A stretch of DNA of 64,000 bases from an uncultured Dehalococcoidia bacterium. Lineage in GTDB: Bacteria; Chloroflexota; Dehalococcoidia; UBA6926. Below the pieces are notes generated by a model. That model ran no database searches. It was not told where the DNA came from and saw nothing but the letters and a program-made list of their open reading frames with translations. The stretch covers positions 24,497 through 88,496 of the forward strand of contig CAYOPL010000009.1 of NCBI GenBank assembly GCA_964405845.1. Reading direction: 5' to 3'. This document shows, piece after piece, positions 1,079-18,412 of the stretch (position 1 is its first letter; each line of letters opens with the position of its first letter). A program made the translations under genes and the position numbers.

Positions 1079-1430
1079 CTAGGAGTAAGCAGGAACTTCT
1101 ACCTCTTCTTCCTCCACCCGCTGCTGCTCAATTGACACAGCCCATTCGAAGAGGGAGAGGGAGGGTTTGCCGCCGTTATAGTGGCCCTTGGTTTTGGTCG
1201 TCGGCTCAGCCATGAACTCCGCCCAGGAGAAGGGCGACCGTTGCGGCTCGTCGGTGTCGGACTCCTTGTTGACGGCGCTTGGAGCGGCTGCTTGTACTCC
1301 TCTACCAGTTGCATCTCCACGATGGTAGGTGTACACAGCTGCGGAACCTGTCGGCTATCGTCGACAAGGTAGGATGCTAGGATGCGGACTCGGTTTCGAC
1401 TGCGCGGGCTTTGGCCATAAGCGCCATTTC
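1079..1430 (-). pseudogene. frameshifted remnant of a helicase 3' end (left copy of a ~300-bp direct repeat; right copy is 6095-6390)
   Basis: ORF 1079..1336 ends ...ESDTDEPQRSPFSWAEFMAEP...PSLSLFEWAV, matching the helicase C-terminus ...ESDADEPQRSLFSWAEFMVEP...PSLSMFEWAL. The upstream part of the match continues in another frame (ORF 1099..1743: SYLVDDSRQVPQLCTPTIVEMQL vs helicase SYLVDDGWKASKPITPSIVEIHP). DNA 1212-1260 is ~92% identical to 6177-6228. Antisense ORFs 1181..1372 and 6146..6337 also match each other. Confidence 0.5.
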
Positions 1431-1544
1431 GGGCATCTTCGCTTCGGACATTCGTTACCCCTCCGAACTCGAACCAACTGACTTGCCTTCTAACGTGCGA
1501 TGTCACTTTCGACCAAAAAGAGAATAAGTCCGCATACATGGCCC

Positions 1545-1592: not shown

Positions 1593-1607
1593 TGCTGTCG
1601 CGGAGCC

Positions 1608-2105
1608 CTAGAAGAGGTTCAGCGCCTGCTGCTGAGCCTCTTCGGTTTCCGTCTCGGTGGTCGCCTCCTGCTGACGTCTGCGCTGCCGCCGGACCGGGGG
1701 AGCTGGCCTCTCGTAAGCAGGATGTTGGGGGGACTCCTCCCAATTGGCCTTCGCCCTCTCGGTCACCGCCGCGACCTCCTGCGCCAGCGCAGGCAGGTCA
1801 TGGCCGTCGAAGGACTCGACGTGCGGGTCCGACGACGGCTGTTTTACCCCGATGACGGCCCTGCCTCCCTTAATGGAGAGGACGACCTTCAGCTCCTCTG
1901 CGGCGTCCGCCTCTGCCTCGGCGTCTGGCTTGTCCTCAGTGTCGGCAGCGCCCTGTTCGTCCTGTTCAGAGTTCCCGCCGGCGTCCTGCTCCTCGGCGGG
2001 GACAGCATCCGTGTCGTCCGTCTTGTCAGCCGCGTCGCCGAAAAGAGTGTCGTCCGCCCTCGGCGCGTCCGAGCGGACCGTTTCCGTTCCGTTGTCGTCT
2101 GGCAT
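1608..2105 (-). CDS. acidic hypothetical protein (165 aa), last gene of the Ubl/E2/JAB/E1 cassette
   Basis: ORF MPDDNGTETVRSDAPR...KVVLSIKGGRAVIGVKQPSSDPHVESFDGHDL... is very Asp/Glu-rich. It sits in the same orientation and is tightly packed with the upstream genes. Confidence 0.5.
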   Translation of the reverse strand: MPDDNGTETVRSDAPRADDTLFGDAADKTDDTDAVPAEEQDAGGNSEQDEQGAADTEDKPDAEAEADAAEELKVVLSIKGGRAVIGVKQPSSDPHVESFDGHDLPALAQEVAAVTERAKANWEESPQHPAYERPAPPVRRQRRRQQEATTETETEEAQQQALNLF

Positions 2106-2156
2106 TGTCCTCTCCTTTCCTCTATATGCTCCAGCGGTGCTACCGTGAACCGGTGG

Positions 2157-2546
2157 CTATGCCGCCAATCCCGACGACTCCCTCTTGATCTCGCCGATTG
2201 TCCTCGGCTCCCAGTAGAGGTCGCGTTCGATGGCGGGTACGCCGCCGAGCACCGTTGCCGCCGCCAACTCGGTCAGGTCGAAGTACCCCCACTCCTCCTC
2301 GAATCCCTGGACGAGGCCGAAGCACTCGCCGGTCTGGGCGTTCCATTCGGTGACGTACCAGCGCCAGCCGTTGTACGGGCAGAACAGCTTGGCGCGCGCC
2401 ATCACGTCGTCGGTGTTCTCAACGTTCTCGTTCGTGTAAAGGGCGGGGATCGTGTCCCCGAGCTCCGTCGGCATCAGCTTGTGCCTTCGCGCCCCGCTGT
2501 TCGGGTCCTGCCAGGTCGTGGTGGTTCCGTTATTCTTGTCGGTCAT
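2157..2546 (-). CDS. DUF2958-family protein (129 aa)
   Basis: Internal ATG at 2546 is preceded by GGGAGAG. Sequence LFCPYNGWRWYVTEWNAQTGECFGLVQGFEEEWGYFDLTELAAATVLGGVPAIERDLYWEPRTIGEI fits my recollection of the DUF2958 signature (FGL..G..ELGY..L.EL....G.P.ERDL.FEP.T), a family typical of conjugative elements. The longer ORF-track N-terminus (2999) is Pro/Gly/Arg-rich junk overlapping the ThiF gene. Confidence 0.6.
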   Translation of the reverse strand: MTDKNNGTTTTWQDPNSGARRHKLMPTELGDTIPALYTNENVENTDDVMARAKLFCPYNGWRWYVTEWNAQTGECFGLVQGFEEEWGYFDLTELAAATVLGGVPAIERDLYWEPRTIGEIKRESSGLAA

Positions 2547-2590
2547 CGGTCTCTCCCATTCCTTGATGCCTGTGCGTCCGGGTGCGCCGG

Positions 2591-3391
2591 TTAGTCGACG
2601 TAGGGCCCCACCGTCCTCTCCACCGCCTCCGGCGTGACGTGCCTGGGCGTGACCGTCCCCAGGTCCATGTCCAGGTAGAGGGCCATGAAGGGGCACGTGC
2701 CCGCCACCATACGGCGGACGACCTGGAGCACCAGCGACGCCATCATCTGGTTGATGGTGGGGTCCTGGTCGGTGAGGTCGAGGGCCGCGGCGCAGTCCAC
2801 GTCCGGCGGCCTGGTCGAGACGGCCGTCAGCAGGTCGGGACGCTGGATGGTGGGCGCCGGTGCCAGGTAACAGGTCTCGCCCTCGAAAGGGGGTTCCTCC
2901 CAGTCCACGCGACCGGAGACGTTGCCGACGAGCACCTGTCCCCAGTTGGTGTCGTTGCCCGCGTCGATGAGCCAGCGGGCCGGGTGGCCGGGCAGGCACT
3001 CGGCCATCGCCCGCCGTGCGGCGGCGTTGTCGGAGCAGCCGATGACAAGGCTCTCGCCGATGTCGATGAGGCCGGAATAGGCGTGTCCGTCGGGGCTTTC
3101 GTCGTACTCCCGGAAGGGGTAGACCGAGTAGCCCACGGGCCGGTCGTATGCGCGGGCGAGCCTGTCGGCCAGGGCTTCGCTCTTGAACCTGCCCACGTCG
3201 CCTGCGTAGAAGTTCTGGCGGAGCAGGTTGTGGGGCTCCACCCGGTCGTGGTCGACGAGGACGATGGTGGCCGCCCGCCCCTGGAAGAGGCGGCAGAGGC
3301 CCTCGGCGACGAAGCCACCGGTCCCGCCGCAGCCGACCACGGTGATCCAGGGGTTGTCCAGCAGGAAGGCGTTGTCCAGGTAGTAGGCCAA
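2591..3391 (-). CDS. ThiF/MoeB/E1-like adenylyltransferase (ubiquitin-activating-like), ~266 aa
   Basis: Rossmann motif VVGCGGTGGFVAEGL and ThiF-like core (LVDHDRVEPHNLLRQ). The ORF-track start at 3466 overlaps the JAB gene by 74 nt. A TTG at 3391 directly follows the JAB stop and has a perfect AAGGAGG 8 nt upstream, so translational coupling is likely (MAYYLDNAFLLDNPWITVVGCGG...). Confidence 0.8.
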   Translation of the reverse strand: MAYYLDNAFLLDNPWITVVGCGGTGGFVAEGLCRLFQGRAATIVLVDHDRVEPHNLLRQNFYAGDVGRFKSEALADRLARAYDRPVGYSVYPFREYDESPDGHAYSGLIDIGESLVIGCSDNAAARRAMAECLPGHPARWLIDAGNDTNWGQVLVGNVSGRVDWEEPPFEGETCYLAPAPTIQRPDLLTAVSTRPPDVDCAAALDLTDQDPTINQMMASLVLQVVRRMVAGTCPFMALYLDMDLGTVTPRHVTPEAVERTVGPYVD

Positions 3392-3392
3392 T

Positions 3393-4031
3393 TCAGTCAC
3401 CTCCTTCGAATGACTTGTTCGTGCCCGACTCCTCGCCAGCCAGCCTGAAGCCGGTCGGGAGGCCATCGAAGACGTGCGGCCAATCGAGTGGGGCGAAGTG
3501 GCCGTAGACGCCGACCCGTAAGCTCACCTCGGGCCGGTCGCTATCGAGGCGTCCGGCGACGCCGTACACGCGGAACCCCTGCTCGTCCCGATCGTCGGTG
3601 GCCGAGAAGAAGGAGCGCGAGCGTCCGTGTGAGTGGAACTCCGCGACCACCCCGGCGGGCGGCGCGTACGCGAGGGATGTTGCGGTCCCCAGCTGCGGGG
3701 GCACGACTAACCGATAGGCGCGCCCGTCCCATCGCACGGCGAAGAACTGTTCCGTGTCCGGGTCGTCCATGAACCAGCGCAGTCCCGTCTCGAACAGCCG
3801 AACCGGGATCGCCCCATGGGCAAGATCCACCTTCTCGGTGACGGATGCCAAGCCACGAACCGTGCAGGGGGCGGCGAGCACCCGCGCCGTCAGGTGAGCG
3901 TTCTCGGACTGGACGTAGAGGCCGTCCGCTCCGAGAACGTAGTCGAATCCGATGCCCTGGACACCTGCCAGCCCGTCCTTGCAATTGACGAGGTAGCCGA
4001 CCGGTCCGGGCCCGGCCTCAGCGGAAGGCAT
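3393..4031 (-). CDS. JAB/MPN (JAMM) metallopeptidase-like protein, 212 aa
   Basis: Canonical JAMM motif E-x(n)-HSH-x7-S-x2-D within VVAEFHSHGRSRSFFSATDDRDEQGFRVYGV. Start taken at ATG 4031 (MPSAEAGPGPVGYLV...), overlapping the upstream E2-like gene stop by 14 nt. The 408-aa ORF-track extension upstream is out-of-frame junk. Confidence 0.8.
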   Translation of the reverse strand: MPSAEAGPGPVGYLVNCKDGLAGVQGIGFDYVLGADGLYVQSENAHLTARVLAAPCTVRGLASVTEKVDLAHGAIPVRLFETGLRWFMDDPDTEQFFAVRWDGRAYRLVVPPQLGTATSLAYAPPAGVVAEFHSHGRSRSFFSATDDRDEQGFRVYGVAGRLDSDRPEVSLRVGVYGHFAPLDWPHVFDGLPTGFRLAGEESGTNKSFEGGD

Positions 4032-4728
4032 AGCCCCGTCTCCCCTGAGAGGCCGCGATGGCCTGGGCCACCGTGCACTGGGCAACCAGATCATCGAGTG
4101 GGTACTCGGTCTGTCCATCCAATTCCTCCCATAGCGCGTGCAGGTTGTCGGGGAACTTCTTCGAGCGGCTGCGGGAGTCCCCGGTGCCGGAGAAGTAGGA
4201 CTGGAAGAAGGACTCCGGTATGAGTCCGACCTCCTCCGGGAACTTGTGGCTACCGGGGCAGGCCCTCCCGTCCGAGAAGACGTTGAAGGCGGGCATCCGG
4301 TAGAGACGGTCATCAGGGTGCGTCGGACGCTCCAGTGCCGCGTAGACCCACGGCGCGCGGCCAGGCGAGCAGACGAAGACCAGCCCCGGCATGGGAAGCC
4401 GGAGGCGTGCGGGGGGCTTGAACGCCTCCCGTTGCAGGGCCACGGGCCAGACCCGTGGCGGTCTCCAGAGGGCGACCATCTGACCGGTTTCGCCCTGGTT
4501 CCACCAGAGGGCGTCCTTGGGCAAGAGGCCCGAGGAGAAGCCCAGGTGTTGGATGAAGACGTTCGCGATCTCGTCCGCCGAGACGGTCCTGACCCAGGTC
4601 GAGTCGCCCTCGAAACCACGCAGCAGGAGCGTCTCGCCGTACACCTCCAGTTGGAGGCTCAGTCTGTCCCTGGGTATGTCCGTCGATCCCGGCAGGGACC
4701 ATTCGGTCTTTTCCGCGTCAGTCGTCAT
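4018..4728 (-). CDS. E2-like (UBC-fold candidate) protein, 236 aa
   Basis: Start at ATG 4728 with AGGAGGAAAG 7 nt upstream. The segment YRMPAFNVFSDGRACPG resembles the E2 HPN(I/V)...DG.IC active-site region (P.FN....DGRAC) and offers a candidate catalytic Cys. Position between Ubl and JAB/E1 matches known bacterial Ubl-E2-JAB-E1 operons. The assignment is by motif and context only. Confidence 0.45.
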   Translation of the reverse strand: MTTDAEKTEWSLPGSTDIPRDRLSLQLEVYGETLLLRGFEGDSTWVRTVSADEIANVFIQHLGFSSGLLPKDALWWNQGETGQMVALWRPPRVWPVALQREAFKPPARLRLPMPGLVFVCSPGRAPWVYAALERPTHPDDRLYRMPAFNVFSDGRACPGSHKFPEEVGLIPESFFQSYFSGTGDSRSRSKKFPDNLHALWEELDGQTEYPLDDLVAQCTVAQAIAASQGRRGYAFR

Positions 4729-5563
4729 GGTTGCTTTCCTCCTGTTCATGTGGTTGTTCCGGGATGCGGGGCAGCACAAAGTCCAGCATCTCGGCGAATC
4801 GGCCGGGGAGGTTGTGCTCCAACCAGTCGGCCAGTGAGCACACAGAGTCCATCAGCGCGCTGGCCTCCCGCCACTCCTCCGTGCCGACGGCGATGACCTC
4901 GTCCTCCCATGCGTCGGCGAAGCCGTCAAAAGAGCCATCCTCGTAGTTGTGGTCGAGGAAGAAGTTACGGGTCCCGGCAAAGACCCATGAAACGGCCTGC
5001 GCCGCCCCCGCGAAACGGGTATCCTTCACGGCCTCGGCGAGGGCTTCCATGTGTATGCCGCCCTCGGGAATCCGCTCCAAGGTCGCTTGCGGGATACGCT
5101 GGGCCGCCGATTCCAGCCAGGCCGTCCGTATCTCGTCGGAATCCCCGTAGAAGAACTCCGGAGGTTCCACCAGCAACAGCAGGGCCGAGATGCCCTCCCG
5201 GTAGCCATTCCACAGCTCGTGGATGTCCTCGTAACCGAAGCCCATCAGGTCGAAGGGGATGCCCCTCCGCATCCAACTCCAGGGTGGCTCATCGTCGGCG
5301 TCGGCCCAGAATTCGATCGCCGGCATGTACAGAGGGAAGTGCTTTTCGCCGACGAGCCGGGCGAAATTCTCCACCCTGGCGCGCGCGTCGGGTGCCGACA
5401 ACGCCTCCTCCGCCTCATCGGGGAAGAGGCGGCGCACCAGCCCTGTGAACCATGCGTAGTCCTCGGCATATCCGATGATCGTGACGAGCTCCCGCAGCGA
5501 CGGCGGACGCCGCAGGAGCGATTGGGCGAGTCCGCTCAGGAGCGCCGGGGCCGCAGATGCCAC
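4718..5563 (-). CDS. hypothetical acidic protein, 281 aa, inside the Ubl cassette
   Basis: GTG at 5563 is preceded by AAGGAGG 7 nt upstream (MASAAPALLSGLAQSLLRRPPSLRELVTIIGYAEDYAWF...EQEESNHDD). The 358-aa ORF-track N-terminus is junk overlapping the upstream 76-aa gene. No family recognised. Confidence 0.5.
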   Translation of the reverse strand: MASAAPALLSGLAQSLLRRPPSLRELVTIIGYAEDYAWFTGLVRRLFPDEAEEALSAPDARARVENFARLVGEKHFPLYMPAIEFWADADDEPPWSWMRRGIPFDLMGFGYEDIHELWNGYREGISALLLLVEPPEFFYGDSDEIRTAWLESAAQRIPQATLERIPEGGIHMEALAEAVKDTRFAGAAQAVSWVFAGTRNFFLDHNYEDGSFDGFADAWEDEVIAVGTEEWREASALMDSVCSLADWLEHNLPGRFAEMLDFVLPRIPEQPHEQEESNHDD

Positions 5564-5766
5564 CGCAGCGCCTCCTTGAGCCGCCCCGTGGTCGAGGCGT
5601 AGTCCTGGGCCTGCGCAGAGGCCGTGTCGACATCCTTCTGTCGTGCGGCCGCGGCGTCCAGGTCGAGGGATCCGTCGGGTCGTGTGAGCTCCGCCGTGAG
5701 CTCGATGATGCGCAGTGCCGTTGGCGGGGTCTCCGCCAGCAGTCCGGCAAAGGTGCGGGTGTCCAT
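5536..5766 (-). CDS. small hypothetical protein, 76 aa
   Basis: ORF MDTRTFAGLLAETPPTALRIIELTAELTRPDGSLDLDAAAARQKDVDTASAQAQDYASTTGRLKEALRWHLRPRRS has plausible composition. It lies between the Ubl and the 281-aa gene, and its 3' end overlaps the next start by 28 nt. Confidence 0.4.
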   Translation of the reverse strand: MDTRTFAGLLAETPPTALRIIELTAELTRPDGSLDLDAAAARQKDVDTASAQAQDYASTTGRLKEALRWHLRPRRS

Positions 5767-5778
5767 CGGATGCCCTCC

Positions 5779-5976
5779 TTATGGGGTGGAGCACCCCTTG
5801 GTGCCCACCCGCCGCTGGAACTCGTAGATGGTGTCGTCGCCCCGTTTCGTCTCCTTCACCGAGGCGTTTGCGATCTCTCCGTAGAAATCGGCGAGCGTTC
5901 CCTTCACCTGGTCGACGGTCATCTCGGGGTCGGGGTCCGGGAACTCTCTGTCGTCGTACACAAACACGCGTGCCAT
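5779..5976 (-). CDS. small ubiquitin-like (beta-grasp, ThiS/MoaD/PRTRC-protein-C-like) protein, 65 aa, with C-terminal ...VGTKG followed by a 4-residue extension (CSTP)
   Basis: ATG at 5976 with GGAAGGAGAAG RBS: MARVFVYDDREFPDPDPEMTVDQVKGTLADFYGEIANASVKETKRGDDTIYEFQRRVGTKGCSTP. Size, charge pattern and the ...GTKG tail fit the small Ubls found next to ThiF/JAB genes on plasmids. Confidence 0.6.
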   Translation of the reverse strand: MARVFVYDDREFPDPDPEMTVDQVKGTLADFYGEIANASVKETKRGDDTIYEFQRRVGTKGCSTP

Positions 5977-6069
5977 GGTCTTCTCCTTCCGGCGTTGCCG
6001 ATACGTGATTCGTCGTGCGGGAGAGGCCGCCGCCACATGCGCGACGGCCTCTCCCGTGATCCTAGCGGC

Positions 6070-8349
6070 CTAGCGTCCCGCGCCGACCGTCTCCTGTTGC
6101 AGCGCCCACTCGAACATCGAGAGGCTCGGGGGCTGGGGCTTCCCGTTGCGTCGCTTCGACTGGACGGGCTCGACCATGAACTCCGCCCAGGAGAAGAGCG
6201 ATCGTTGCGGCTCGTCGGCATCGGACTCCGTGTTGGCGGCGGCCTGGAGCGGTAGCTCGGTCTCTGTAGCCGGATGGATCTCCACGATGCTGGGTGTGAT
6301 GGGCTTTGATGCCTTCCATCCGTCGTCGACGAGGTAGGATTCCGATTCGGTTTCGGCCGCGCGAGCTTGGGCGAAGGCGGCTTCCACCGTGTCGGCCGCG
6401 TCGTCCTCCTCGCTGTTGACCAGCTTGCGAGCCAGGGCGAGCATGAGGTCGTCGCCGTCGTCTCCGTAGGCGGCTAAACCGTCCTCGGGGAGTTCTCCCT
6501 CGACCGCCAGCGAGCTCTGCAGCTTCTGCGCGACCAGCTTCAGCGCGTCGGCCTGCAATGTGCTCCGGTAGGCCATGAAGATGACCTTCACGGGCCGCGT
6601 CTGGCCGATCCGCCACGAGCGCCGTGACGCCTGCCGCATGGTGTACACCGAGTAGTCCGTCTCGTACCAGACGATGGTCGGGAAATCCACGAGGTCGAGG
6701 CCGGTCTGGACGAGGCGCGGGTGACAGATGATGACATCCACGCCCTTCTTGACCTTCTCTGCGACCCACGCCTCGCGTTTCTCCGGCGCGACCGCGTCAG
6801 CCTTCATGACGGCGACCCTGAACCCGTGCCGCGTGAGCATGTCGTCCATGCGGCCAGTGATGTCCCGGGTTCCCGTATGCGTCGCGTAGACGAGGACACG
6901 CCGTCCAGCCAACCGTTCCGCGGCGACTAGGTCGAGCAGCGCCTTCTCCTTTGGGTACACGCGGTCCTCGGACAGCGGCGGCAACTGGATGAGCGGCTCA
7001 CCTGAGTCGGGATCGAACACCGTCTCGCCGCGCGTGCAGCCGTCGGGGTAGGCGAGGAGCGACTGCAGGTAGATCGAGAGCAACCGACGCGAGCCACCGG
7101 CCAGTGCCTTGACCATCGCGTGGCGCAACTTCTCGAACAGCTTGTCGTAGGCGGACTTCTGGGAGAAGCCCGTCGCGTCGGCGTCGCTGTCCATCGCGGT
7201 CAGCATGACCTGCTCCTCGTAGTCGGGCAGCCCGGACGCCACGTCCGACAGCCGCAGGAAGACCGAGTTGCCGATCAGGTGGAACAGTGCCGACGGCGCG
7301 AGGCCGGGGCGCTCCTTCACCGTCTTGCGGTACTTCCGGCGACGGCTGTTGCGGCCGTCCTCCATCGAGTGGTCGTCGTCCTTGCCGATGGTGTGCTCGA
7401 CGAACCCGTAGCGGTTGACCCACCGCCCTTCCTCCGACCTCCCGAACTCCGTCCGAATCGCCGGGCTGAACCGGTAGAGCAGGTGGAAGAGCGTGGATGA
7501 GTACCCGCCGAGCAGCGTGCCGGTGAGGGTGAGCGACCTCCCGCAGGCGTCGGCGAGCACGCCCGCCGCGATGCCCTGCGCGGATCCCCTTCCCTTGTAT
7601 TCGTGGACCTCGTCGCCGATGAGCAGGTCGAAGAATCCCCGCATGTGGTTCTTGACGTAGTCGGCGAGCGGATAGCGGCGCGGACCGGAGTTGTCGGCCT
7701 GCCAGAGCGGACCGCCGCATTCGGGACACTTCCGCTTGCGGCGGGCGAGGTCCTCATGCGAGAGGGGCACGCCGTCGGCGTCCACGATCTGCGTCGCGCA
7801 GCCGGGGCACGTCGGGATGCGGAATGGCTCCAAGGTCTCGTCCAGCCGCATCAGCCGTCCGCTCGAAACCGCCCAGCGGCTAACGACGGCGGGCTGCCAC
7901 CGGTAGGAGAGCTTGGCGCGCTCGCGGGACATGATGGCGAAGAGCGGGCCGAGACTGACTGCGCGGCCGAGGCTGTCGAGGTCCGTGATGGAACTGACGA
8001 TGACGGCCCTGGCGTTTGGAATCGTCTGCTCGACCTCCCTCTTCCACTTCACGGTGAGGTGGGGCGGAGCGAGGACGAGGATGTGCCGGAATCCGGCGGC
8101 GTGGGCGGCGGCCGTCGCGATGAACGTCTTGCCCGTGCCCATCTCGCCGACAACGGCAGTGCCCTGATTGGCCCTGAGCGAGAGCGCCGACCCGCGAATC
8201 GCGTCCGCCTGCGCCCCGAGCGGGGTGCGGAGAAGCGGTGGCAGCGGGACGGCGCTGGCGTCGGACGGCCGGTACAGGGGCGGGTAGGAATCGACGACGC
8301 GCTGCGCGATGGCGTCCCTGTAGGTGTCGATGAATTCGCCGAGGTTCAT
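6070..8349 (-). CDS. superfamily-2 helicase (SNF2/DEAD-like, DEVH box) with inserted C4 zinc ribbon, 759 aa
   Basis: ATG at 8349 with GGAAGGA RBS. Walker A GEMGTGKT, motif II LIGDEVHEYKG, zinc ribbon CPGCATQ...CPECGG, helicase-C region with motif VI SWRIGQTRPVKV. The acidic C-terminal tail (FSWAEFM...MFEWAL) is the segment duplicated at 1079-1430. Confidence 0.8.
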   Translation of the reverse strand: MNLGEFIDTYRDAIAQRVVDSYPPLYRPSDASAVPLPPLLRTPLGAQADAIRGSALSLRANQGTAVVGEMGTGKTFIATAAAHAAGFRHILVLAPPHLTVKWKREVEQTIPNARAVIVSSITDLDSLGRAVSLGPLFAIMSRERAKLSYRWQPAVVSRWAVSSGRLMRLDETLEPFRIPTCPGCATQIVDADGVPLSHEDLARRKRKCPECGGPLWQADNSGPRRYPLADYVKNHMRGFFDLLIGDEVHEYKGRGSAQGIAAGVLADACGRSLTLTGTLLGGYSSTLFHLLYRFSPAIRTEFGRSEEGRWVNRYGFVEHTIGKDDDHSMEDGRNSRRRKYRKTVKERPGLAPSALFHLIGNSVFLRLSDVASGLPDYEEQVMLTAMDSDADATGFSQKSAYDKLFEKLRHAMVKALAGGSRRLLSIYLQSLLAYPDGCTRGETVFDPDSGEPLIQLPPLSEDRVYPKEKALLDLVAAERLAGRRVLVYATHTGTRDITGRMDDMLTRHGFRVAVMKADAVAPEKREAWVAEKVKKGVDVIICHPRLVQTGLDLVDFPTIVWYETDYSVYTMRQASRRSWRIGQTRPVKVIFMAYRSTLQADALKLVAQKLQSSLAVEGELPEDGLAAYGDDGDDLMLALARKLVNSEEDDAADTVEAAFAQARAAETESESYLVDDGWKASKPITPSIVEIHPATETELPLQAAANTESDADEPQRSLFSWAEFMVEPVQSKRRNGKPQPPSLSMFEWALQQETVGAGR

Positions 8350-8454: not shown

Positions 8455-9495
8455 CTAGGCGGCGATGTCCGTGATCTCGCCGTCGTCGAGGCCGAGCGCG
8501 ACGACGGTCGTCTTGATCCTCTCGCGGAACACCTCCTTCTCCGGGGTGTCGTCCACGAGGACCATCTCCTTCGACGTGCGTCCCTTGACGAGGATGCGCC
8601 TGCCGTCGGCCTCGAGCTGGAGGTTGTCGAGGAATCCCGCCGCCACCAGCATGGCCATGTGGCCGCGCCGGAGCGGCATGAGCGGGCGGGTGGGGTCTTC
8701 CCTCGCCGGCCAGAGCGCGTCCGTGATCTGCGGGTTCGTCCACAGACCTGCCCGTCGCGCCTCGGCTGCGGCCTCCACGGGATCGACCGTCCGCCGCGTG
8801 AAGAGGATGTCTCCCGCCGCCGTCAGTTGGGGACTGAAGACCGGGTACTGGGACAGCCTGAGCGTCTCCGGTTCCCCCTCGGCCCACTCCTTGATTTGCG
8901 CCTCGGTGTACCCGTCTGGGCTGGGGTCGGCACGGCGGACGGCCATCAGCACGACCTGGTCGAAGGCCTCGCGCTCCGGTTCGGGGAACGCCCAGCATCG
9001 AACGCGGGTGTAGTGCGTCGACAGGAACCGCGCCGACACCGCTAGTCGCTGGCGCGGCACGATGAACACGAGCACCCCGCCGTCGATGAGGTACCGGGTG
9101 CAGTGGGTGAGGAAGGCATGTTCGACGCGCTTCTTGTCGTCGTTCTCCCAGTCGTAGGGAGGATTGAGGAAAAGCAGCCCAAACGCGCCGTTGGCGATGG
9201 ACGTCTGGAAGGCGTCCGCAGTGAGCACGTGATCGAGCCGTTCTGCGGCCTCCTCGGCGCGTTCCTTGTGGAGCTCGACGCCGTAGGTCTCGATGGCCGT
9301 GTTGCCGGCTTCGCGGAGCCGGTCGGTGAGGTGCCGAAGCGCGTCGCCTGCGCCGCAGCACGGATCGAGCGCGCGGATGGTGGCCTTGGCCCTGTTGACG
9401 TAGCCGTAGGGGGGGCGCATGAGGGTGGTGACCATGTTGACCACCCGATCCGGCGTGGGGTAGAAGCCGCCCTTGGCCTGTCCCGCAAGTCGCAT
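8455..9495 (-). CDS. N6-adenine DNA methyltransferase (gamma-class motif order), 346 aa, no restriction partner seen nearby
   Basis: ATG at 9495 with GAGAGGAG RBS. Motif X FYPTP, motif I DPCCGAG, motif IV NPPY (FLNPPYDWEND). It sits immediately upstream of the helicase in the same operon. Confidence 0.8.
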   Translation of the reverse strand: MRLAGQAKGGFYPTPDRVVNMVTTLMRPPYGYVNRAKATIRALDPCCGAGDALRHLTDRLREAGNTAIETYGVELHKERAEEAAERLDHVLTADAFQTSIANGAFGLLFLNPPYDWENDDKKRVEHAFLTHCTRYLIDGGVLVFIVPRQRLAVSARFLSTHYTRVRCWAFPEPEREAFDQVVLMAVRRADPSPDGYTEAQIKEWAEGEPETLRLSQYPVFSPQLTAAGDILFTRRTVDPVEAAAEARRAGLWTNPQITDALWPAREDPTRPLMPLRRGHMAMLVAAGFLDNLQLEADGRRILVKGRTSKEMVLVDDTPEKEVFRERIKTTVVALGLDDGEITDIAA

Positions 9496-9508
9496 GTATG
9501 TCTCCTCT

Positions 9509-9901
9509 CTAGTCCGTGTCCGTGTCGTTGATGCCGACGACCTCGCCGACGCCGTGCGTCTGCTGGAAGCAGAGCGCCTGGCTTGTCCTGAGACGGCTGG
9601 CGCAGGTCGTGCAGTAGACCGTGACGATGTCCGCGTCGCGGGCGACGGTGATGCGCCTGACGAGGATGACCCGGTCCGCGCCGATGCGGTGCGTGTAGAG
9701 CATCACCCGCCCGTCTCCCGACTCCTCCGGCGTGGCGGGCCTGTAGAAGTGGGGCTGTTTCGCGACGGTCAGGTGGGAGCCGCCGTCGTGTCCGCAGTAG
9801 GGGCAGATGCTGCCATCGAGGGCGAACCTCCTCCATGCGCGGACATTCTTCTGGCGGCGCTTGACGCTGGCCCGCCGGGCCTTCCTGAGTGTCTTATCCA
9901 T
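9509..9901 (-). CDS. zinc-ribbon protein, 130 aa
   Basis: Internal ATG at 9901 (GAGGGGGA RBS) lies 4 nt after the stop of the upstream gene. MDKTLRKARRASVKRRQKNVRAWRRFALDGSICPYCGH...VYCTTCASRL has two CxxC pairs. The ORF-track 262-aa extension is antisense junk. Confidence 0.5.
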   Translation of the reverse strand: MDKTLRKARRASVKRRQKNVRAWRRFALDGSICPYCGHDGGSHLTVAKQPHFYRPATPEESGDGRVMLYTHRIGADRVILVRRITVARDADIVTVYCTTCASRLRTSQALCFQQTHGVGEVVGINDTDTD

Positions 9902-10526
9902 CGGCGTCCCCCTCGTTCGGGAGGGTGAGCGCGCCCATGCCGACGGCCATCGAGAGGTCCTCGCGCAGCGCCTCGGAATCGGGAGAGCACCGGTAGGCAA
10001 TGATGCCCTCGGAATCGAGCTTGACGATCTCCTTCCTCCGCTGGCCGCGTTTCCAGAGCCAATCGGCCCAGTTGCGGTGAAGCGGTAAGGGGCTGCGCCG
10101 ATCCAGGAAGCGGTGGTGCAGCGCCGGAGCGGCGTCCTCGGACTCGGCGAGCACGAGGAAGTCGTCGCGCTCGAAGGCGTACTCGGCCATGCGGGTGAAG
10201 ACGAGCGCGTGCCAGCCGCCCGACGACGGGAGTCGCTGGATCTTCGTCGTCCACGTGCCGATGGTGGAGTGGGGGATGACGCAGCGCTCGTACCCACCGG
10301 AGACGGCCATGCCGTCGGCCCCGCGAATGAGGTGGGCGGGCTCAGGGGGCTGCTTCAGCATGGATGCCCAGATGGCCTTGAGCGCAGTCTGGGAGCCGAC
10401 CATCGACAGGAACCAGAGCGTGCCGTCCTGCGAATCGCGTGCGAAGGCGTCCGCGGTGGCGGAGAAGCCGCCCGCATTGACGGTGTAGAGCGACTCGGCG
10501 TCGATCATCGCAGATTGAACGGTCAT
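9894..10526 (-). CDS. hypothetical protein, 210 aa
   Basis: ATG at 10526 with AAAGGAAGGA RBS. Protein-like composition (MTVQSAMIDAESLYTVNAGGFSATADAFARDSQDGTLWFL...). No family recognised. Confidence 0.5.
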   Translation of the reverse strand: MTVQSAMIDAESLYTVNAGGFSATADAFARDSQDGTLWFLSMVGSQTALKAIWASMLKQPPEPAHLIRGADGMAVSGGYERCVIPHSTIGTWTTKIQRLPSSGGWHALVFTRMAEYAFERDDFLVLAESEDAAPALHHRFLDRRSPLPLHRNWADWLWKRGQRRKEIVKLDSEGIIAYRCSPDSEALREDLSMAVGMGALTLPNEGDADG

Positions 10527-10586
10527 TGGCGTGTCCTTCCTTTAGGGAACAGATTGTCCGGCGCGGGTCCTTGCCCGCGTGATGCC

Positions 10587-11096
10587 TCAGTCGCTGATGT
10601 GACCGAGGTCCTTGAGGCTCGCGAAGTGAACGCCGCCGATGACGACGTGATCGAGGAGGTCGATGCCCAGCAGCTTGCAGGCATCGTTGAGTTCCCTCGT
10701 GGTCCTGACATCATCGGGGCTCGGCGTGGGGTCGCCGGATGGATGGTTGTGGACGACGATGACGTTTGGCAGGCCGTCCACGACGGCGGGGCGGATCACC
10801 TCGGCGGGCCGGACTCTGCATTCGCTGACCGTCCCCTGGTAGATGACTCGTTGTCCGACGAGGTGGTTTCTCTTGTCGAGGAGCAGAACGCGTAACTGTT
10901 CCTGCGCGAGGTTGGCCATCTCGTCCCGCAGCGCCGCGTGCACGTCGGCGGGGCTGGAGATGATGACCCTGGAATTGTTCTGACTGGCGGTCTTCGTGCC
11001 CACCTCGTACCTGACCGAGAGTTCAGCGAGGAGCTGCAAGTTGGCGCGGAGCGCGTCGATCAACTCGGACGGCTCCTGAGCGCGTTTGCGCGGCAT
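10587..11096 (-). CDS. radC: RadC-family JAB-domain protein
   Basis: ATG at 11096 with GGGAGG RBS. Hallmark HNHPSGDPTPSPDD motif (RadC/JAMM-like) and a helix-hairpin-helix-like N-terminus. Confidence 0.8.
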   Translation of the reverse strand: MPRKRAQEPSELIDALRANLQLLAELSVRYEVGTKTASQNNSRVIISSPADVHAALRDEMANLAQEQLRVLLLDKRNHLVGQRVIYQGTVSECRVRPAEVIRPAVVDGLPNVIVVHNHPSGDPTPSPDDVRTTRELNDACKLLGIDLLDHVVIGGVHFASLKDLGHISD

Positions 11097-11207
11097 AGCG
11101 TGTGCCTCCCATTGGGATATCCTTAAAGGAAGGCGGGGCCGCTCCCGGTGGGGGAGTCGGCCCCGTGTCGCGTTCGGCCGGAGCCGAGCGCCGCGTGGTC
11201 TGTGCCC

Positions 11208-11603
11208 CTAGAAGGGCGAGCTGCCCGGCTCCACGCCGTCCTCGTACTCCGCTGAATCGTGGTTGGGCGAGCCGTTGCCGCCGCCGCCGTCGAGGAAGAC
11301 CACCTCGGCGGCGTAGATCTCGGTGGAGTAGCGGCGCGTCCCGTCCTTCGCCTCGTAGGAGTTCTGGGCGAGGCGGCCCGCGACGTAGATGCGCTGGCCC
11401 TTCTCCACGTACTGGTTGACGGCCTCGCCTAGCTTGTCCCACACCGTGACGGTGTGCCAATCGGTCTCGGTCTCGCCGTTCTGGCGGTGGCGGTCGGTGG
11501 CCACCCTGAGCTGCGTGACGGCGGTGCCGTTCGGCGTGTAGCGCATCTCGGGCTCGGCGCCCACGCGGCCCAAAAGCTCGACGCGGTTGATCGTGCGTGA
11601 CAT
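11208..11603 (-). CDS. ssb: single-stranded DNA-binding protein
   Basis: ATG at 11603 with GAAGGAG RBS. OB-fold signature MSRTINRVELLGRVGAEPEMRYTPNGTAVTQLRVAT...WHTVTVWDKLGE, a Gly-rich linker and an acidic tail ending ...SSPF (cf. the SSB DDIPF tail). Confidence 0.8.
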   Translation of the reverse strand: MSRTINRVELLGRVGAEPEMRYTPNGTAVTQLRVATDRHRQNGETETDWHTVTVWDKLGEAVNQYVEKGQRIYVAGRLAQNSYEAKDGTRRYSTEIYAAEVVFLDGGGGNGSPNHDSAEYEDGVEPGSSPF

Positions 11604-11726
11604 TTTTGCTCCTTCTCGCAATGGGATGCGATGTGAACTGGCGCGATTCGCGCCTCCTTTGGATGAGAGCGAAGCCGCTCCCGGTACGGGAACAGCCCCG
11701 TGTTGCGCCCTCTGAATGAGGGGCGG

Positions 11727-12779
11727 CTAGCTGACGCGGATGTAGTTCGAAGAACTCTCCGTGACTATCTGTGCGCGGGTCTTCGGATCCAGCAGGGCGT
11801 TGAGCCTCCTGTGGTCGACGGCGTAACGCCGCGACTGCACGAGGCTGACGGTGTGACCGTCGATCTCCGCCTTGCCGGAATCCCGGCCCGTCATCCACGC
11901 CTTGAGCGTGTTGAGCGCCGCGCGCTTGGCCTGCTCCGGCCCGCGCACCGCGTCCTGAGCCGACAGGTAGTCCGCGACCGCCTGCCGTGCTTGATCGTCG
12001 CTCACCTCCTCGACCTCGTGTTCTTCCTGTTGCAACTCGTCTGTCTCTGCCGCCTCTGGCTGGCACTCTGCCAGGAATGGACAGCTGCGGCACTGCCACG
12101 ACTCCGCTGTGAAGTCGCGGCCGGGCAGGGCGTCTGGGTCCGGCCCGACCAGCGTGTGATGGGCGGCGAGTTCTCCCAACCGACCGGAGACATCCTTGAG
12201 GACCTTCTCAAGCCGCTCGGCGGAAATGACCTCGTAGTCCCATACCCGTGAGCCCGTGTCCATGCAGGCGATGACGGCATCGCGTATCTCGCCGTAGGTT
12301 CCGAGGGTGTAGAGGGCGGCCTGCGCGACGGCGTTCGGATGGGAGCGTTCCGCACCGAGCATCTGCCAGCGCTTGAATGCGTCGGGGTTGCGGGTCTTGA
12401 CCTCGATGACCGCTTCCCCGGCGAAGATGGGCATGATTCCTGTGGCATCGGGATGGCCGGTCACCCGCAGGGTGGGGCCGATAGGGACGGACACGGGTGC
12501 GGGGTCGTCGCGGTCCGCGGGGTGGATCTCCCATCGGGCACGCTCCATCGCCCGGAGGACGACGGGCTCGAGCGCGGTCCCCGCCTCCATGATCGTGAGC
12601 GATTCGTCGGTCGGCGGGTTCGTGACGGGGTGTCCCGTCGCGGCGTACCAGAGGGCCCGGCGGCAGTCGCCCGCCGCCGATGCGCGGACCTCCAGCACAC
12701 CGTCCTGCGTGAACTGCGCGGCGGGCCGCGAGTACGCGTCCGCCATGTCGGTCGTCTGTTTCTGGATTGTGTCTCTCAT
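11727..12779 (-). CDS. PD-(D/E)XK nuclease of the Cas4/RecB-like Fe-S type, 350 aa; putative exonuclease partner of the Rad52-like annealase
   Basis: ATG at 12779 with AGGAGAA RBS. N-terminal Cys (AAGDCRRALWY), E-V-K catalytic triad context (AGEAVIEVKTRNPDAFKRW) and C-terminal Cys cluster WQCRSCPFLAEC, the 1+3 Cys arrangement of Cas4/AddB nucleases. The ORF-track 497-aa N-terminus is junk. Confidence 0.65.
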   Translation of the reverse strand: MRDTIQKQTTDMADAYSRPAAQFTQDGVLEVRASAAGDCRRALWYAATGHPVTNPPTDESLTIMEAGTALEPVVLRAMERARWEIHPADRDDPAPVSVPIGPTLRVTGHPDATGIMPIFAGEAVIEVKTRNPDAFKRWQMLGAERSHPNAVAQAALYTLGTYGEIRDAVIACMDTGSRVWDYEVISAERLEKVLKDVSGRLGELAAHHTLVGPDPDALPGRDFTAESWQCRSCPFLAECQPEAAETDELQQEEHEVEEVSDDQARQAVADYLSAQDAVRGPEQAKRAALNTLKAWMTGRDSGKAEIDGHTVSLVQSRRYAVDHRRLNALLDPKTRAQIVTESSSNYIRVS

Positions 12780-12823
12780 CGCTATTCTCCTGTAGGGAAT
12801 GTGCGGCGGGGTTAGACGGCTAG

Positions 12824-13195: not shown

Positions 13196-13210
13196 GGCGT
13201 CTCCTTCCTT

Positions 13211-13531: not shown

Positions 13532-13638
13532 TGCAGAGCTCCTCTCTCTGGTCACGGGTCACTACAGCTATCGTCAAAGGAAGCGGTGGGGCGGCCCCGA
13601 TTCGGGACAGCCCCGCCGTGCTGTTGTGGGCTGCGAGT

Positions 13639-14403: not shown

Positions 14404-14486
14404 GGTTGTCTCCTTGCTTGTCCGATAAGTGAGCGGACCGTCAGTGGGCCCGTGGGCGGGGTGTTCGTCCCCGTCGTTCGTGTCGG

Positions 14487-18387: not shown

Positions 18388-18412
18388 GCGTCACCTCCCT
18401 CTCATCACCGAT

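Follow-up and report, generated by a model that had tools for sequence, protein, structure and literature searches.

A complete kit for tagging proteins with a ubiquitin-like modifier (Ubl) is found here in the company of DNA-transfer genes and not in an anti-phage defence island. The window, 64,000 nucleotides from an uncultured Dehalococcoidia bacterium, was described in a sequence-only reading as holding an eight-gene Ubl-E2-JAB-E1 operon in the leading region of a conjugative element. We place roughly even confidence in the view that this is a putative working cascade for Ubl conjugation, related to PRTRC / class 6d and a backbone module of a Dehalococcoidia ICE that serves its transfer or establishment.

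Gene content and junctions

The cassette comprises eight co-oriented minus-strand genes (5976..1608). All eight open reading frames proposed earlier are present on that strand, their coordinates exact or off by few codons, in this order:

5779..5976, minus strand: pro-Ubl, 65 aa, beta-grasp Prok_Ub / PRTRC_C
5536..5766, minus strand: p76, 76 aa, without known family; ribosome-binding site AAGGAGG, ATG start
4718..5563, minus strand: p281, 281 aa, acidic (pI 4.4), all-alpha
4018..4728, minus strand: E2-like conjugating enzyme, 236 aa, Prok-E2_D
3393..4031, minus strand: JAMM/JAB metallopeptidase, 212 aa, with an N-terminal extension of ~90 aa
2591..3391, minus strand: ThiF-type E1, 266 aa from TTG 3391, ThiF profile
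2157..2546, minus strand: DUF2958 protein, 129 aa, PF11171
1608..2105, minus strand: p165, 165 aa, acidic (pI 4.2), last gene of the conserved block

The likeliest E1 start is TTG 3391, which has GGAGG 8 nt upstream, follows the JAB stop by 1 nt and coincides with the onset of the PRTRC_ThiF profile; ATG 3466 (291 aa) was judged less likely. DUF2958 starts at ATG 2546. Translational coupling, claimed for the whole operon, stands at five of the seven junctions, namely the overlaps p76/p281, p281/E2 and E2/JAB and the gaps of 12 nt (Ubl/p76) and 1 nt (JAB/E1), but not at E1/DUF2958 (44-nt gap) or DUF2958/p165 (51 nt). Upstream, a helicase gene is separated from the cassette by a 93-nt gap, and no terminator-like site was found on the minus strand within 1600-8400, so that the two are apparently co-transcribed.

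All eight genes are real. Third codon positions hold most substitutions in seven of them; for p165 the test covered 495 codons, with too few ungapped comparisons to show a third-position excess, and it is counted as a real gene because its core and C-terminus are conserved. Neither p76, p281 nor p165 has a match in Pfam, NCBIfam, PADLOC or PHROGs.

The modifier and its enzymes

The Ubl assignment was confirmed by matches to Prok_Ub (PF14454, 55.6 bits) and PRTRC_C (TIGR03738, 47.9 bits against a cut-off of 45.95). Its segment RRVGTKG is invariant and closes at Gly61 (codon 5794-5796), followed by the four-residue tail CSTP; across 72 homologues there is no change up to Gly61, and hypervariable tails of 4-11 aa come afterwards, a pattern which argues that the Ubl is probably trimmed ahead of use. 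A Burkholderia homologue ends in GAKG plus SHA, and in a Pseudanabaena homologue GPKG is the very end, without a tail.

The identities proposed for the three enzymes likewise held. The E2 matches Prok-E2_D (PF14460, 54.8 bits), with a candidate catalytic Cys157 (4258-4260), Asn149 (4282-4284) and His161. The peptidase matches Prok-JAB (PF14464, 26 bits) and PRTRC_A (50.5 bits, under the cut-off of 101.8) and has a complete JAMM motif, E94...H133-S-H135...S143-x2-D146; its predicted task is to cut the tail off the Ubl, possibly along with deconjugation. The E1 matches ThiF (PF00899, 53.5 bits) and PRTRC_ThiF (92 bits, under the cut-off of 144.75), possesses the nucleotide loop GCGGTGG and an invariant Cys200 (2792-2794), likely in the crossover loop, and in the PDB finds generic E1-like matches only (MccB, Uba4, UBA7). 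E2 N149-x7-C157, E1 C200 with the nucleotide loop, and JAMM E94/H133/H135/S143/D146 are invariant across Chloroflexota, Cyanobacteria and Betaproteobacteria. For the class 6d E2 the classical His was described in 2006 as absent and the Cys as kept, while the His behind the Cys (C157-x3-H161 here) was termed absolutely conserved (PMC1779556); the H161 counterpart is absent from cyanobacterial and Chlorohelix relatives, which counts against our main reading.

Kinship with PRTRC and other Ubl systems

The cassette is a divergent relative of PRTRC (ParB-Related, ThiF-Related Cassette, TIGR03734-03742), class '6d' of Iyer, Burroughs & Aravind 2006, a type predicted in that year. This kinship had been suspected, and the top NCBIfam matches are indeed PRTRC_C, B, A and ThiF; both cassettes share these four core proteins (C the Ubl, B the Prok-E2_D E2, A the JAB), while the order of Ubl, small ORF, protein of ~280-330 aa, E2, JAB and E1 is that of the canonical C-hyp71-F-B-A-ThiF. 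Also shared are a Ubl terminus G-x-K-G, often with a short tail added, carriage on plasmids or ICEs and an SF2/SNF2 helicase gene close by. However, only the Ubl exceeds its curated cut-off, B, A and ThiF reaching 40-65% of theirs; ParB, D, E and F are undetected, the reported lack of ParB being upheld over the ~50 ORFs scanned across the window; p281 has no detectable kinship to PRTRC_F; the 3' end carries two additional genes, for DUF2958 and the acidic p165; and the hosts are Chloroflexota (Dehalococcoidia/SAR202) instead of Proteobacteria. No experimental study of PRTRC or class 6d was found in the literature.

The view that the middle genes lack any recognisable family needs revision. p281 is one member of a large family that forms 539 clusters at 50% identity, with relatives directly upstream of E2 in cyanobacterial and Chloroflexota plasmids. 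Its predicted structure is confident and all-helical, and no solved structural relative was found; class 6d as listed in 2006 comprises Ubl, JAB, E1, E2 and a 'novel alpha-helical protein' (PMC1779556), for which p281 is a candidate, and it might act as an adaptor or E3-like factor. p76 is found at 74 of 80 loci (mean identity 79.6%), its substitutions by codon position (0.119/0.106/0.303) being in excess at the third. A small ORF also trails the Ubl in other phyla, of 71 aa in Burkholderia, 83 aa in Pseudanabaena and 88 aa in Aggregatilineales; no sequence similarity between p76 and these three positional counterparts was detected.

DUF2958 (PF11171, 30.8 bits) occurs at 75 of 80 loci and at none of six plasmid loci checked (L081-L086), and is an addition specific to this lineage; in other settings the domain is joined to giant, helicase-related proteins of conjugative transposons or sits beside MobC/relaxase. 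p165, present at 77 of 80 loci with 54% mean identity, has a disordered acidic N-terminus, a conserved core at residues ~71-125, a basic stretch and a conserved C-terminus ...QQTLRLF (QQALNLF in the window). A likeness of p165 to PRTRC_E, in layout and in a C-terminal L-x-S-L-F, lacks statistical support (hhalign E 0.076).

The label 'Bil/Bub-type' goes too far, since the common features are gene order and presumed chemistry only; the E1 and E2 families differ and DUF6527 is absent. As in Bil types I and II (BilABCD), Ubl, E2, JAB and E1 are separate genes, Cys-based E1/E2 chemistry is expected and the JAB could mature a pro-Ubl. In type II Bil, however, the E1 has inactive and active adenylation domains and a mobile Cys domain, whereas here it is a 266-aa single-domain ThiF, and the E2 is a CEHH-type E2-like protein rather than Prok-E2_D; Bil Ubls are ISG15-like, in contrast to the single 61-residue beta-grasp here, and Bil is anti-phage, whereas the cassette stands in a string of transfer genes. 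Bub (6E / DUF6527) resembles it in uniting a bacterial Ubl, E1, E2 and peptidase on mobile elements, but employs Tyr/Ser oxyester intermediates without a catalytic Cys, where the E1 and E2 Cys are here invariant, and a Ser-type E2 instead of a Prok-E2_D with Cys; its BubE (DUF6527) serine protease, fused proteins and multi-domain Ubls have no equivalent here. Type II CBASS shares E1 and E2 domains and a JAB peptidase (Cap2/Cap3), and the cassette E1 weakly matches the Cap2-type 'E1-E2' models of PADLOC; yet Cap2 is an E2-E1 fusion that conjugates the CD-NTase instead of a Ubl, and CD-NTase and effector genes are absent here. With the eukaryotic cascade the cassette shares a beta-grasp precursor trimmed to a C-terminal Gly, an adenylating E1, a JAMM deubiquitinase and a UBC-like E2 with Asn eight residues ahead of the catalytic Cys. 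Unlike that cascade, it has a minimal ThiF-type E1, an E2 that lacks the HPN His and has an additional beta domain at its N-terminus, no E3 recognisable as RING, HECT or any other type, and a modifier ending in K-G, not G-G.

Element context and role

The genes upstream of the cassette are:

6070..8349, minus strand: SF2 helicase (ResIII / Helicase_C by Pfam, Zn-ribbon insert), directly upstream
8455..15608, minus strand: DUF6094 methyltransferase, p210, RadC, SSB, Cas4/RecE-like exonuclease, TSCPD protein, Rad52 annealase and DnaG-type primase, in 26-60 of 80 loci where flanks permit

The transfer-associated placement was corroborated for primase, Rad52, SSB, RadC, methyltransferase and helicase, with a T4SS gene set in addition; the cassette shares the strand of the DNA-processing genes, and the T4SS set is divergent. 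The term 'leading region' stays tentative because neither an oriT nor a nick site was located. The helicase precedes the cassette at 73 of 80 loci and is a linked neighbour, for which we claim no membership in the Ubl system; SNF2-related genes ahead of PRTRC in three Burkholderiaceae plasmids resemble it at motif level only.

Each of the eight genes is present at 72-80 of 80 related loci; these represent one ICE family in Dehalococcoidia/SAR202 genomes, several of which hold two or three copies. Mean identity is 82-90% for Ubl, E1 and E2 against 66-69% for helicase, methyltransferase and SSB, and the cassette would appear to be a backbone module of the family. Among typed plasmids with relatives, 21 of 31 are conjugative or mobilisable; plasmid relatives adjoin SSB, ParB, SNF2/DEAD helicases, Gp157 or Lar. 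On the Nostoc plasmid p057_B, cassette and MobC/relaxase share a strand, with the cassette ~6 kb further downstream, a position not obviously leading. A search of IMG/VR viral contigs yielded no relatives.

We infer the biochemical steps, their timing and their targets as follows. The eight genes would be transcribed as the distal end of the string of primase, annealase, exonuclease, SSB, RadC, methyltransferase and helicase. JAMM would cut CSTP off the pro-Ubl to expose Gly61, which the small homodimer-type E1 would adenylate before loading the Ubl on Cys200; the Ubl would pass to E2 Cys157, Asn149 acting as the Asn of the canonical HPN motif, and be joined to lysines of one or few targets, with p281 and p76 probably the substrate adaptor and JAMM perhaps also reversing the mark. 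The most likely role is in the element's own transfer or establishment, and the targets may be its DNA-processing proteins or host factors acting on DNA as it enters. No target could be recognised, and the cassette proteins are unremarkable in lysine content. An anti-defence role in the recipient, suggested earlier as a possibility, is a reasonable inference.

Protection of the host from phage is less likely, although it has a strong prior because CBASS type II and Bil, the bacterial Ubl-conjugation systems characterised so far, are all anti-phage, and many such systems are found on mobile elements. The ICE would then carry an anti-phage or anti-plasmid system that puts the Ubl on an invader's structural or replication protein, as Bil does; we consider this unlikely, and doubtful too the elaboration in which p281 and p76 form a sensor or specificity factor and JAMM restrains the system. 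The type I Bil order, Ubl-E2-DUB-E1, is that of the cassette, uncharacterised bacterial E1/E2/JAB/Ubl families are mostly predicted to be immune and are often on mobile elements, and the cassette occupies the extreme end of the conserved block, a frequent cargo site. Protection against invasive replicons was also one option in Iyer et al. 2006 (PMC1779556). Against this, Ubl, E2, JAB and accessory proteins match no PADLOC model, generic E1 similarity excepted (PADLOC 2.0.0, 2023, which may lack the family); the cassette is in essentially every ICE copy and better conserved than the DNA-processing backbone, unlike swappable cargo; it is apparently co-transcribed with the helicase; and across phyla it is flanked by genes for DNA entry or partition and not by defence islands.

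Alternatively, Ubl tagging might tune how stable or active the element's proteins for replication, partition, excision or transfer are, which we hold to be rather improbable, as we do an addiction-like opposition of E1 and E2 to JAB. An addiction-like or stability-regulating role was proposed by Iyer et al. 2006 (PMC1779556), and canonical PRTRC was defined along with a ParB homologue and protein D, but neither is present here. The two or three ICE copies per genome make copy control or exclusion between copies plausible, and the element does carry maintenance functions, as a PIN/FitA toxin-antitoxin pair in another part of it shows; yet the cassette is linked to helicase, methyltransferase and SSB, the recombinase or toxin-antitoxin region is ~55 kb away, and no toxic component is indicated anywhere in the sequence.

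A sulfur-carrier or peptide-adenylation pathway (MoaD/ThiS/CysO or MccB type) without protein conjugation, of which the sulfur-carrier form was named earlier as the alternative to watch for, is highly improbable: outside PRTRC the closest solved or named E1 relatives are ThiF/MoeB/MccB, and JAB-processed sulfur carriers such as CysO/Mec+ exist, but the cassette has a dedicated E2 with an invariant Asn-x7-Cys and a Ubl ending in T-K-G plus tail rather than GG, and moves with conjugative elements, and neither its operon nor the window holds genes for a rhodanese, a sulfurtransferase, or cofactor or cysteine biosynthesis.

Downstream of p165, likeness to other element copies stops at about 1413-1480; one further feature lies on this side of p165:

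1110..1415, minus strand: degenerate, frameshifted copy of the helicase 3' end, in direct repeat with 6167-6297

This repeat (D1/D2, 1203-1332 versus 6167-6297, identity 89% and 71%) was found in the window and locus L060 only. The bacteria that host the mobile element are sponge-associated Dehalococcoidia.

Gene content and conservation of the cassette

The cassette lies in a part of the window with a GC content of about 66%, and comprises eight minus-strand genes, as the sequence-only reading had described. All eight ORFs are present, five were identified by profile, and only small corrections to coordinates were required. They are listed here in order of transcription, with mean protein identity over the related loci described below.

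Features of the cassette
5779-5976, minus strand: Ubl, 65 aa, a beta-grasp protein; Prok_Ub PF14454 (55.6 bits), PRTRC_C TIGR03738 (47.9 bits); identity 89.5%
p76, minus strand: 76-aa protein; identity 79.6%
p281, minus strand: 281-aa protein; identity 70.8%
4018-4728, minus strand: E2, 236 aa; Prokaryotic E2 family D PF14460 (54.8 bits); identity 81.8%
3393-4031, minus strand: JAB, a JAMM metallopeptidase, 212 aa; Prok-JAB (26 bits); identity 73.8%
From TTG 3391, minus strand: E1, 266 aa; ThiF (53.5 bits); identity 85.5%
2157-2546, minus strand: DUF2958 protein; DUF2958 profile (30.8 bits); identity 69.0%
1608-2105, minus strand: p165, 165-aa protein; identity 54.4%

No match was obtained for p76, p281 or p165 in Pfam, NCBIfam, PADLOC or PHROGs. 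The genes are tightly packed: 12 nt separate the Ubl stop from the p76 start, the p76/p281, p281/E2 and E2/JAB pairs overlap by 28, 11 and 14 nt respectively, and gaps of 44 and 51 nt precede the DUF2958 gene and p165. The TTG at 3391 lies one base past the JAB stop and has a well-placed GGAGG; because of this placement, and its agreement with the beginning of the PRTRC_ThiF profile, it was preferred to ATG 3466 as the E1 start. There is no terminator-like site on the coding strand within the block. A megablast search with positions 1500-8400 returned no match in plasmid and phage collections, and neither Rfam nor a tRNA scan produced any match across the entire window.

A scan with the E2 protein, restricted to one genome per species, identified 110 stretches encoding a relative, of which 80 loci were kept, nearly all from metagenome-assembled genomes of Dehalococcoidia, SAR202 or Chloroflexota. 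Several genomes carry two or three element copies per chromosome and, judged by bin names, many of the source genomes appear to come from sponge metagenomes. When the window proteins were compared by tblastn, each of the eight genes was found in 72-80 of the 80 loci, and missing genes mostly coincided with loci truncated by contig ends. Mean identities for the upstream helicase, methyltransferase and SSB are 66-69%; the cassette enzymes are more strongly constrained than these adjoining DNA-processing genes. An excess of third-codon-position substitutions (0.119/0.106/0.303 for p76) indicates that seven of the genes are real and subject to purifying selection. For p165, ungapped comparisons were too few for the codon-position test, and support comes from its conserved core and C-terminus. 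Similarity between copies ends approximately 130-200 nt past the p165 stop, making p165 the final gene of the conserved block. The element is an integrative conjugative element (ICE) whose highly successful family inhabits apparently sponge-associated Dehalococcoidia, and the cassette belongs to its fixed backbone. Database relatives of this family's E2 number over 1200 at E<=1e-3, with identities of 77-88% among the best 120, and the family is unusually prolific in Dehalococcoidia (e.g. OY760104.1, OZ244064.1 and CBDBNU01).

Relationship to PRTRC and class 6d operons

A survey in 2006 recognised five types of bacterial E1/E2/JAB operon, 6a-6e, among which 6d is an uncharacterised operon with Ub-like, JAB, E1-like and E2-like components and a rapidly diverging novel alpha-helical protein (PMC1779556, Table 1). 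The window likewise has separate Ubl, JAB, E1-like and E2-like genes together with a gene for an alpha-helical protein. TIGRFAM later gave the proteobacterial form of class 6d the name PRTRC, for ParB-Related, ThiF-Related Cassette. A relation to PRTRC had been proposed from sequence alone, and it is borne out both by the top NCBIfam matches of Ubl, E2, JAB and E1, which are PRTRC proteins C, B, A and ThiF, and by gene order. The Ubl covers positions 6-66 of 66 in TIGR03738 and exceeds its cut-off (47.9 against 45.95 bits), whereas the B, A and ThiF counterparts fall under theirs (57.3 against 131.45, 50.5 against 101.8 and 92.2 against 144.75 bits). The canonical order on a Burkholderia plasmid is ParB - E (157 aa) - C (72 aa) - hypothetical (71 aa) - F (329 aa) - B - A - ThiF, and the window order Ubl-p76-p281-E2-JAB-E1 equals that of Burkholderia/Paraburkholderia plasmids from C onwards. 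Canonical cassettes carry ParB directly upstream, whereas no ParB domain occurs among the roughly 50 ORFs of the window; nor is there an NCBIfam match to PRTRC D, E or F for p76, p281 or p165, which correspond in position and size only.

Three other Burkholderiaceae plasmids have the same order without an annotated small ORF and with a SNF2-related gene in front. This gene, of approximately 1040 aa (comparison loci L089, L090, L091 (locus 1-270) and L092:550-3669), parallels the helicase of the window in its position, the similarity between the two being at motif level only (E ~0.002). In Paraburkholderia sp. PGU19, a Lar restriction-alleviation gene and PRTRC protein D are found approximately 9-13 kb from the cassette.

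When plasmids were searched with E1 by tblastn, 31 records were found in cyanobacteria, Burkholderiaceae and one Chloroflexota plasmid, all at less than 60% identity; 16 of the 31 are typed as conjugative and five as mobilisable. Of the operon types, class 6d has the closest association with plasmids and ICEs. Among the non-proteobacterial examples examined, most have the order Ubl - small ORF - protein of about 250-320 aa - E2 - JAB - ThiF without ParB, and their neighbours include SSB, helicases, Gp157 or relaxase. On a Stanieria plasmid the helical protein and E2 are encoded about 3 kb from the ThiF gene, and one metagenomic contig has a ParB_N protein and extra genes between E2 and ThiF. 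The cassette is a ParB-less, Chloroflexota-type variant of PRTRC/6d, in a lineage that has lost ParB. Class 6d was predicted nearly twenty years ago and has apparently gone without experimental characterisation since; a literature search found no experimental study of PRTRC or class 6d, and no functional study for its Pfam/TIGRFAM accessions or for DUF2958.

Among the accessory proteins, p281 belongs to a large family, a profile search of 1.84 billion representatives returning 539 clusters at E<=1e-3. Homologues are encoded directly upstream of E2 on a Chlorohelix plasmid (hhalign probability 97%) and on four cyanobacterial plasmids, and the AlphaFold2 model is all-alpha with a pLDDT of 92. 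The protein holds the operon position of PRTRC_F; identity with PRTRC_F was rejected at the sequence level, there being no NCBIfam match among 45 diverse relatives and an hhalign probability of 0.1%. It is a suitable match for the 'novel alpha-helical protein' listed under class 6d and, from its fixed place beside E2, we infer that it may be an adaptor or E3-like partner. Counterparts of p76 with similar size occur at the same position in other cassettes with no detectable sequence similarity, and a comparison with the 71-aa Burkholderia ORF likewise showed none. The DUF2958 gene is absent from the six plasmid loci examined (L081-L086). Elsewhere, the domain lies within a 2094-aa helicase-related protein on a Prevotella plasmid, beside topoisomerase and primase genes, and a DUF2958 gene is divergent from MobC/relaxase on a planctomycete plasmid; these occurrences tie it to DNA-transfer functions.

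In p165, conservation is poor across the acidic N-terminus; a conserved core follows, then a basic stretch, and the protein ends in a conserved QQTLRLF, which reads QQALNLF in the window. Proteobacterial PRTRC_E (L081:5513-5986 and L089:2518-2994) has an acidic low-complexity region and the ending G-T-D-L-x-S-L-F. Alignment of p165 residues 67-88 with PRTRC_E residues 10-31, the same segment as had been noticed by eye, gave a non-significant hhalign E of 0.076, so that an identification of p165 as PRTRC_E was rejected as lacking statistical support and is retained as a hint. Both tails resemble sliding-clamp-binding motifs of the QL[SD]LF type, a likeness that is no more than a lead.

Catalytic residues and characterised conjugation systems

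Residue alignments spanning Dehalococcoidia, Chlorohelix, four cyanobacteria and Burkholderia show that the three enzymes retain their predicted catalytic residues. In E2, P146, N149, G154, C157 and G159 are invariant. Asn149 is eight residues ahead of Cys157, and in canonical E2s the HPN Asn stands at this same distance from the catalytic Cys. JAB has a full invariant JAMM motif (E94, H133-S-H135, S143 and D146). Invariant features of E1 are the GCGGTGG loop, D-x-D...N..RQ, D-x-GN...GQV and a single Cys, C200, after PDLL, the segment in which ThiF/MoeB-type enzymes have their crossover-loop Cys. The E2 of class 6d was described as keeping Cys, without the classical His of HPN and with a conserved His C-terminal to the Cys, and its JAB as having an N-terminal alpha+beta domain with conserved Arg and Trp (PMC1779556). 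The window E2 segment M-P-A-F-N149 is without the HPN His and has C157 and H161 (C-P-G-S-H); H161 is kept in the Dehalococcoidia lineage and missing in the cyanobacterial and Chlorohelix relatives, in contrast to the 2006 account. In JAB, about 90 aa lie ahead of the JAMM core and, as read from the sequence, contain LRW and VRW.

An AlphaFold2 model of E2 from 37 sequences (mean pLDDT 83) comprises a helix (51-61), four main strands (73-113), a long loop bearing N149 and C157, and helices at 167-176, 196-203 and 220-228, with an extra N-terminal beta unit ahead of helix 51-61. In the UBC/E2 fold, alpha1 is followed by a four-stranded sheet, a loop holding Asn and the catalytic Cys, and alpha2-4. 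Foldseek comparison of this model with the PDB produced no significant match. When PDB sequences were searched with the E2 profile at E<=10, the only five matches were unrelated, and neither an E2-like nor a Bil protein was among them.

The Ubl is invariant through R-R-V-G-T-K-G61 in 72 Dehalococcoidia homologues and then continues into unalignable tails of 4-11 residues; elsewhere it ends G-A-K-G-S-H-A in Burkholderia and exactly G-P-K-G in Pseudanabaena. Conservation that stops at Gly, followed by a tail free in length and sequence, is the pattern expected of a tail that is removed. The Ubl is probably made as a precursor, with the JAMM peptidase as the obvious candidate trimming enzyme. From the sequence, a trypsin cut past K60 should leave a single Gly on modified lysines, a signature readable by mass spectrometry. 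Depletion of Lys as a means of avoiding self-modification was considered and rejected: Lys makes up 0.4% of E1 and 0.7% of p281, but the primase and TrbL are equally poor, and the cassette value of 0.21 for K/(K+R) compares with 0.23 for other genes. The cassette probably encodes a functioning E1-E2 conjugation cascade, for which residues suitable for mutation can be named (Ubl G61, E1 C200, E2 N149/C157 and JAMM H133/H135/D146).

A comparison with Bil/Bub-type operons had also been drawn, and it holds only for gene order and chemistry, whereas the defining features of Bil and Bub are all absent. In type II CBASS, presumably class 6b of the 2006 table, Cap2 is an E2-E1 fusion beside a CD-NTase and an effector, whereas E1 and E2 of the window are separate genes and no CD-NTase occurs among its scanned ORFs. 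Biochemical studies have dissected classes 6b (CBASS type II), 6c (Type II Bil) and 6e (Bub) (PMC11601596, PMC10557695). Type II BilD combines inactive and active adenylation domains with an inserted mobile Cys domain and works with a CEHH-type E2 (PMC10557695), whereas the window E1 has 266 aa and one ThiF domain, and the E2 matches only Prok-E2_D. Bub forms Tyr/Ser oxyesters, has no catalytic Cys in E1 or E2 and employs the DUF6527 protease BubE (PMC11601596); the operon in the window has no DUF6527, and its E1 and E2 have invariant Cys residues (C200 and C157). An anti-phage system called 6A-MBL is also listed in NCBIfam. PADLOC and PHROGs searches with the cassette proteins gave nothing beyond generic E1 similarity, the PADLOC matches being limited to the nucleotide-binding region of E1. 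In the PDB, E1 has generic relatives only (MccB, Uba4 and UBA7), no relative of Ubl, E2, JAB, p281, DUF2958 or p165 was detectable, and no solved structure was found for any class 6d protein.

Element context and possible role

The DNA in the window is an integrative conjugative element, with the following components outside the cassette.

Features of the element
6070-8349, minus strand, upstream of the cassette: SF2 helicase
Further upstream, minus strand: DUF6094 methyltransferase, 210-aa protein without known family, RadC, SSB
Further upstream, minus strand: Cas4/RecE-like exonuclease, TSCPD protein, Rad52-type annealase, DnaG-type primase
From about 18.5 kb, divergent: type IV secretion set of TrbL/VirB6, pilin, PrgI-like protein, VirB4/TraC, coupling protein, Replic_Relax
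More distal: eukaryote-like surface proteins, two-component system, ImuB/DnaE2, SRAP, serine recombinase, PIN/FitA, second Replic_Relax

We suggest that the cassette serves transfer or establishment of the element, although its role is much less certain than the cascade itself. In favour of this, the cassette is fixed in the backbone and strongly constrained, it stands at the end of a string of DNA-processing genes with no terminator-like site before it, in other phyla related cassettes have SSB, ParB, helicases and restriction-alleviation genes as neighbours, no defence-system model recognises it, and a search of viral contigs with E1 found no relative. Against it, the characterised relatives CBASS type II and Bil are anti-phage, no origin of transfer was found, and one Nostoc plasmid has the cassette downstream of a relaxase operon. 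A leading region in the sense of Samuel et al. 2024 lies directly downstream of oriT in the direction of transfer, and SSB and orphan methyltransferases have been described in plasmid leading regions; placement of the cassette in a leading region, with an anti-defence role, is plausible. A search for inverted repeats in 15900-18700 and 29100-31700 found only weak repeats and no recognisable origin of transfer, so the leading-region label is drawn solely from the SSB and orphan methyltransferase content. With the cassette it becomes testable whether ubiquitin-like tagging helps conjugative elements to transfer or establish themselves, and no functional study of ubiquitin-like systems in conjugation or leading regions was found in the literature.

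Anti-phage activity of the characterised relatives CBASS type II and Bil invites the view that the cassette is defence cargo; this is unlikely given that no defence-system model matches and that the backbone includes the cassette as a constant component under strong constraint. Even as a normal defence against phage, the family would extend the catalogue by a minimal E1/E2 pair of single-domain type and by a new helical partner protein. A module for maintenance or regulation of the element is doubtful to a similar degree. A more specific form of the anti-defence role, in which the cassette is a counter-defence or host-takeover device, is a long shot: the machinery would be expressed on entry of the ICE and put Ubl on host proteins that restrain its DNA, p281 (which has no solved fold relative) and p76 would form a new, substrate-selecting E3-like adaptor, and the C-terminal QxxLxLF of p165 would anchor it to a hub protein of the host, for example the sliding clamp. 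If real, such a device would to our knowledge be the first case of a mobile element turning ubiquitin-like conjugation on its bacterial host, as opposed to a host turning it on phage. A sulfur-carrier pathway of the MoaD/CysO type, raised earlier as an alternative, is highly improbable, as MoaD/ThiS/CysO carriers end in Gly-Gly and have no E2, whereas the window Ubl ends in T-K-G plus a tail, has a dedicated E2, and has no sulfurtransferase or biosynthetic gene in the window.

Several further features of the element were observed. The helicase C-terminus carries SLF/SMF-W repeats, and a degenerate, frameshifted copy of the helicase 3'-end lies at 1110-1415, just downstream of p165, forming a direct repeat (1203-1332 and 6167-6297; 89% and 71% identity; spacing 4964) that brackets all eight genes. 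It was rejected as a general cassette boundary, being seen only in the window and in one related locus (L060), and probably marks recombination between element copies. Positions 1-1100 have a GC content of about 58%, no convincing ORF and no Rfam or tRNA match; they resemble none of the 80 related loci and may be an element boundary or insertion site. At 11727-14661 the Cas4/RecE-like exonuclease (PHROG 1990/434) adjoins the Rad52-type annealase as a RecET-like recombination pair; the TSCPD-domain gene at 12824-13210 is in an overlapping frame, and the 504-aa ORF is therefore probably shorter than listed. Between the small primase-proximal ORFs and a 293-aa HTH-like gene (17506-18387), the first of the minus-strand string, there is approximately 1.1 kb of apparently non-coding sequence (16400-17500) with lower GC. 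Its inverted repeats are all weak, and it may be a regulatory region or hold oriT.

Surface-protein genes occupy 31634-40063 and 42530-45985. One encodes a giant protein of 2809 aa, in which seven Calx-beta stretches are combined with SRCR and SWM repeats, and the other a protein of 1151 aa with LRR/PKD. Eukaryote-like surface proteins of this kind are typical of sponge symbionts, and these may be ICE cargo. An ImuB-like Y-family polymerase, a DnaE2-type error-prone polymerase and SRAP at 49997-55392 constitute a mutagenesis/DNA-damage cassette, apparently inside or beside the element. Two Replic_Relax genes (relaxase-like, wHTH-fused), a large serine recombinase and a PIN/FitA toxin-antitoxin pair are located at 27585-29183, 57100-58803, 58793-59472 and 60294-62102; the two Replic_Relax genes are about 31 kb apart, and the DNA represents either a single large element, 60 kb or more in length, or a tandem pair.
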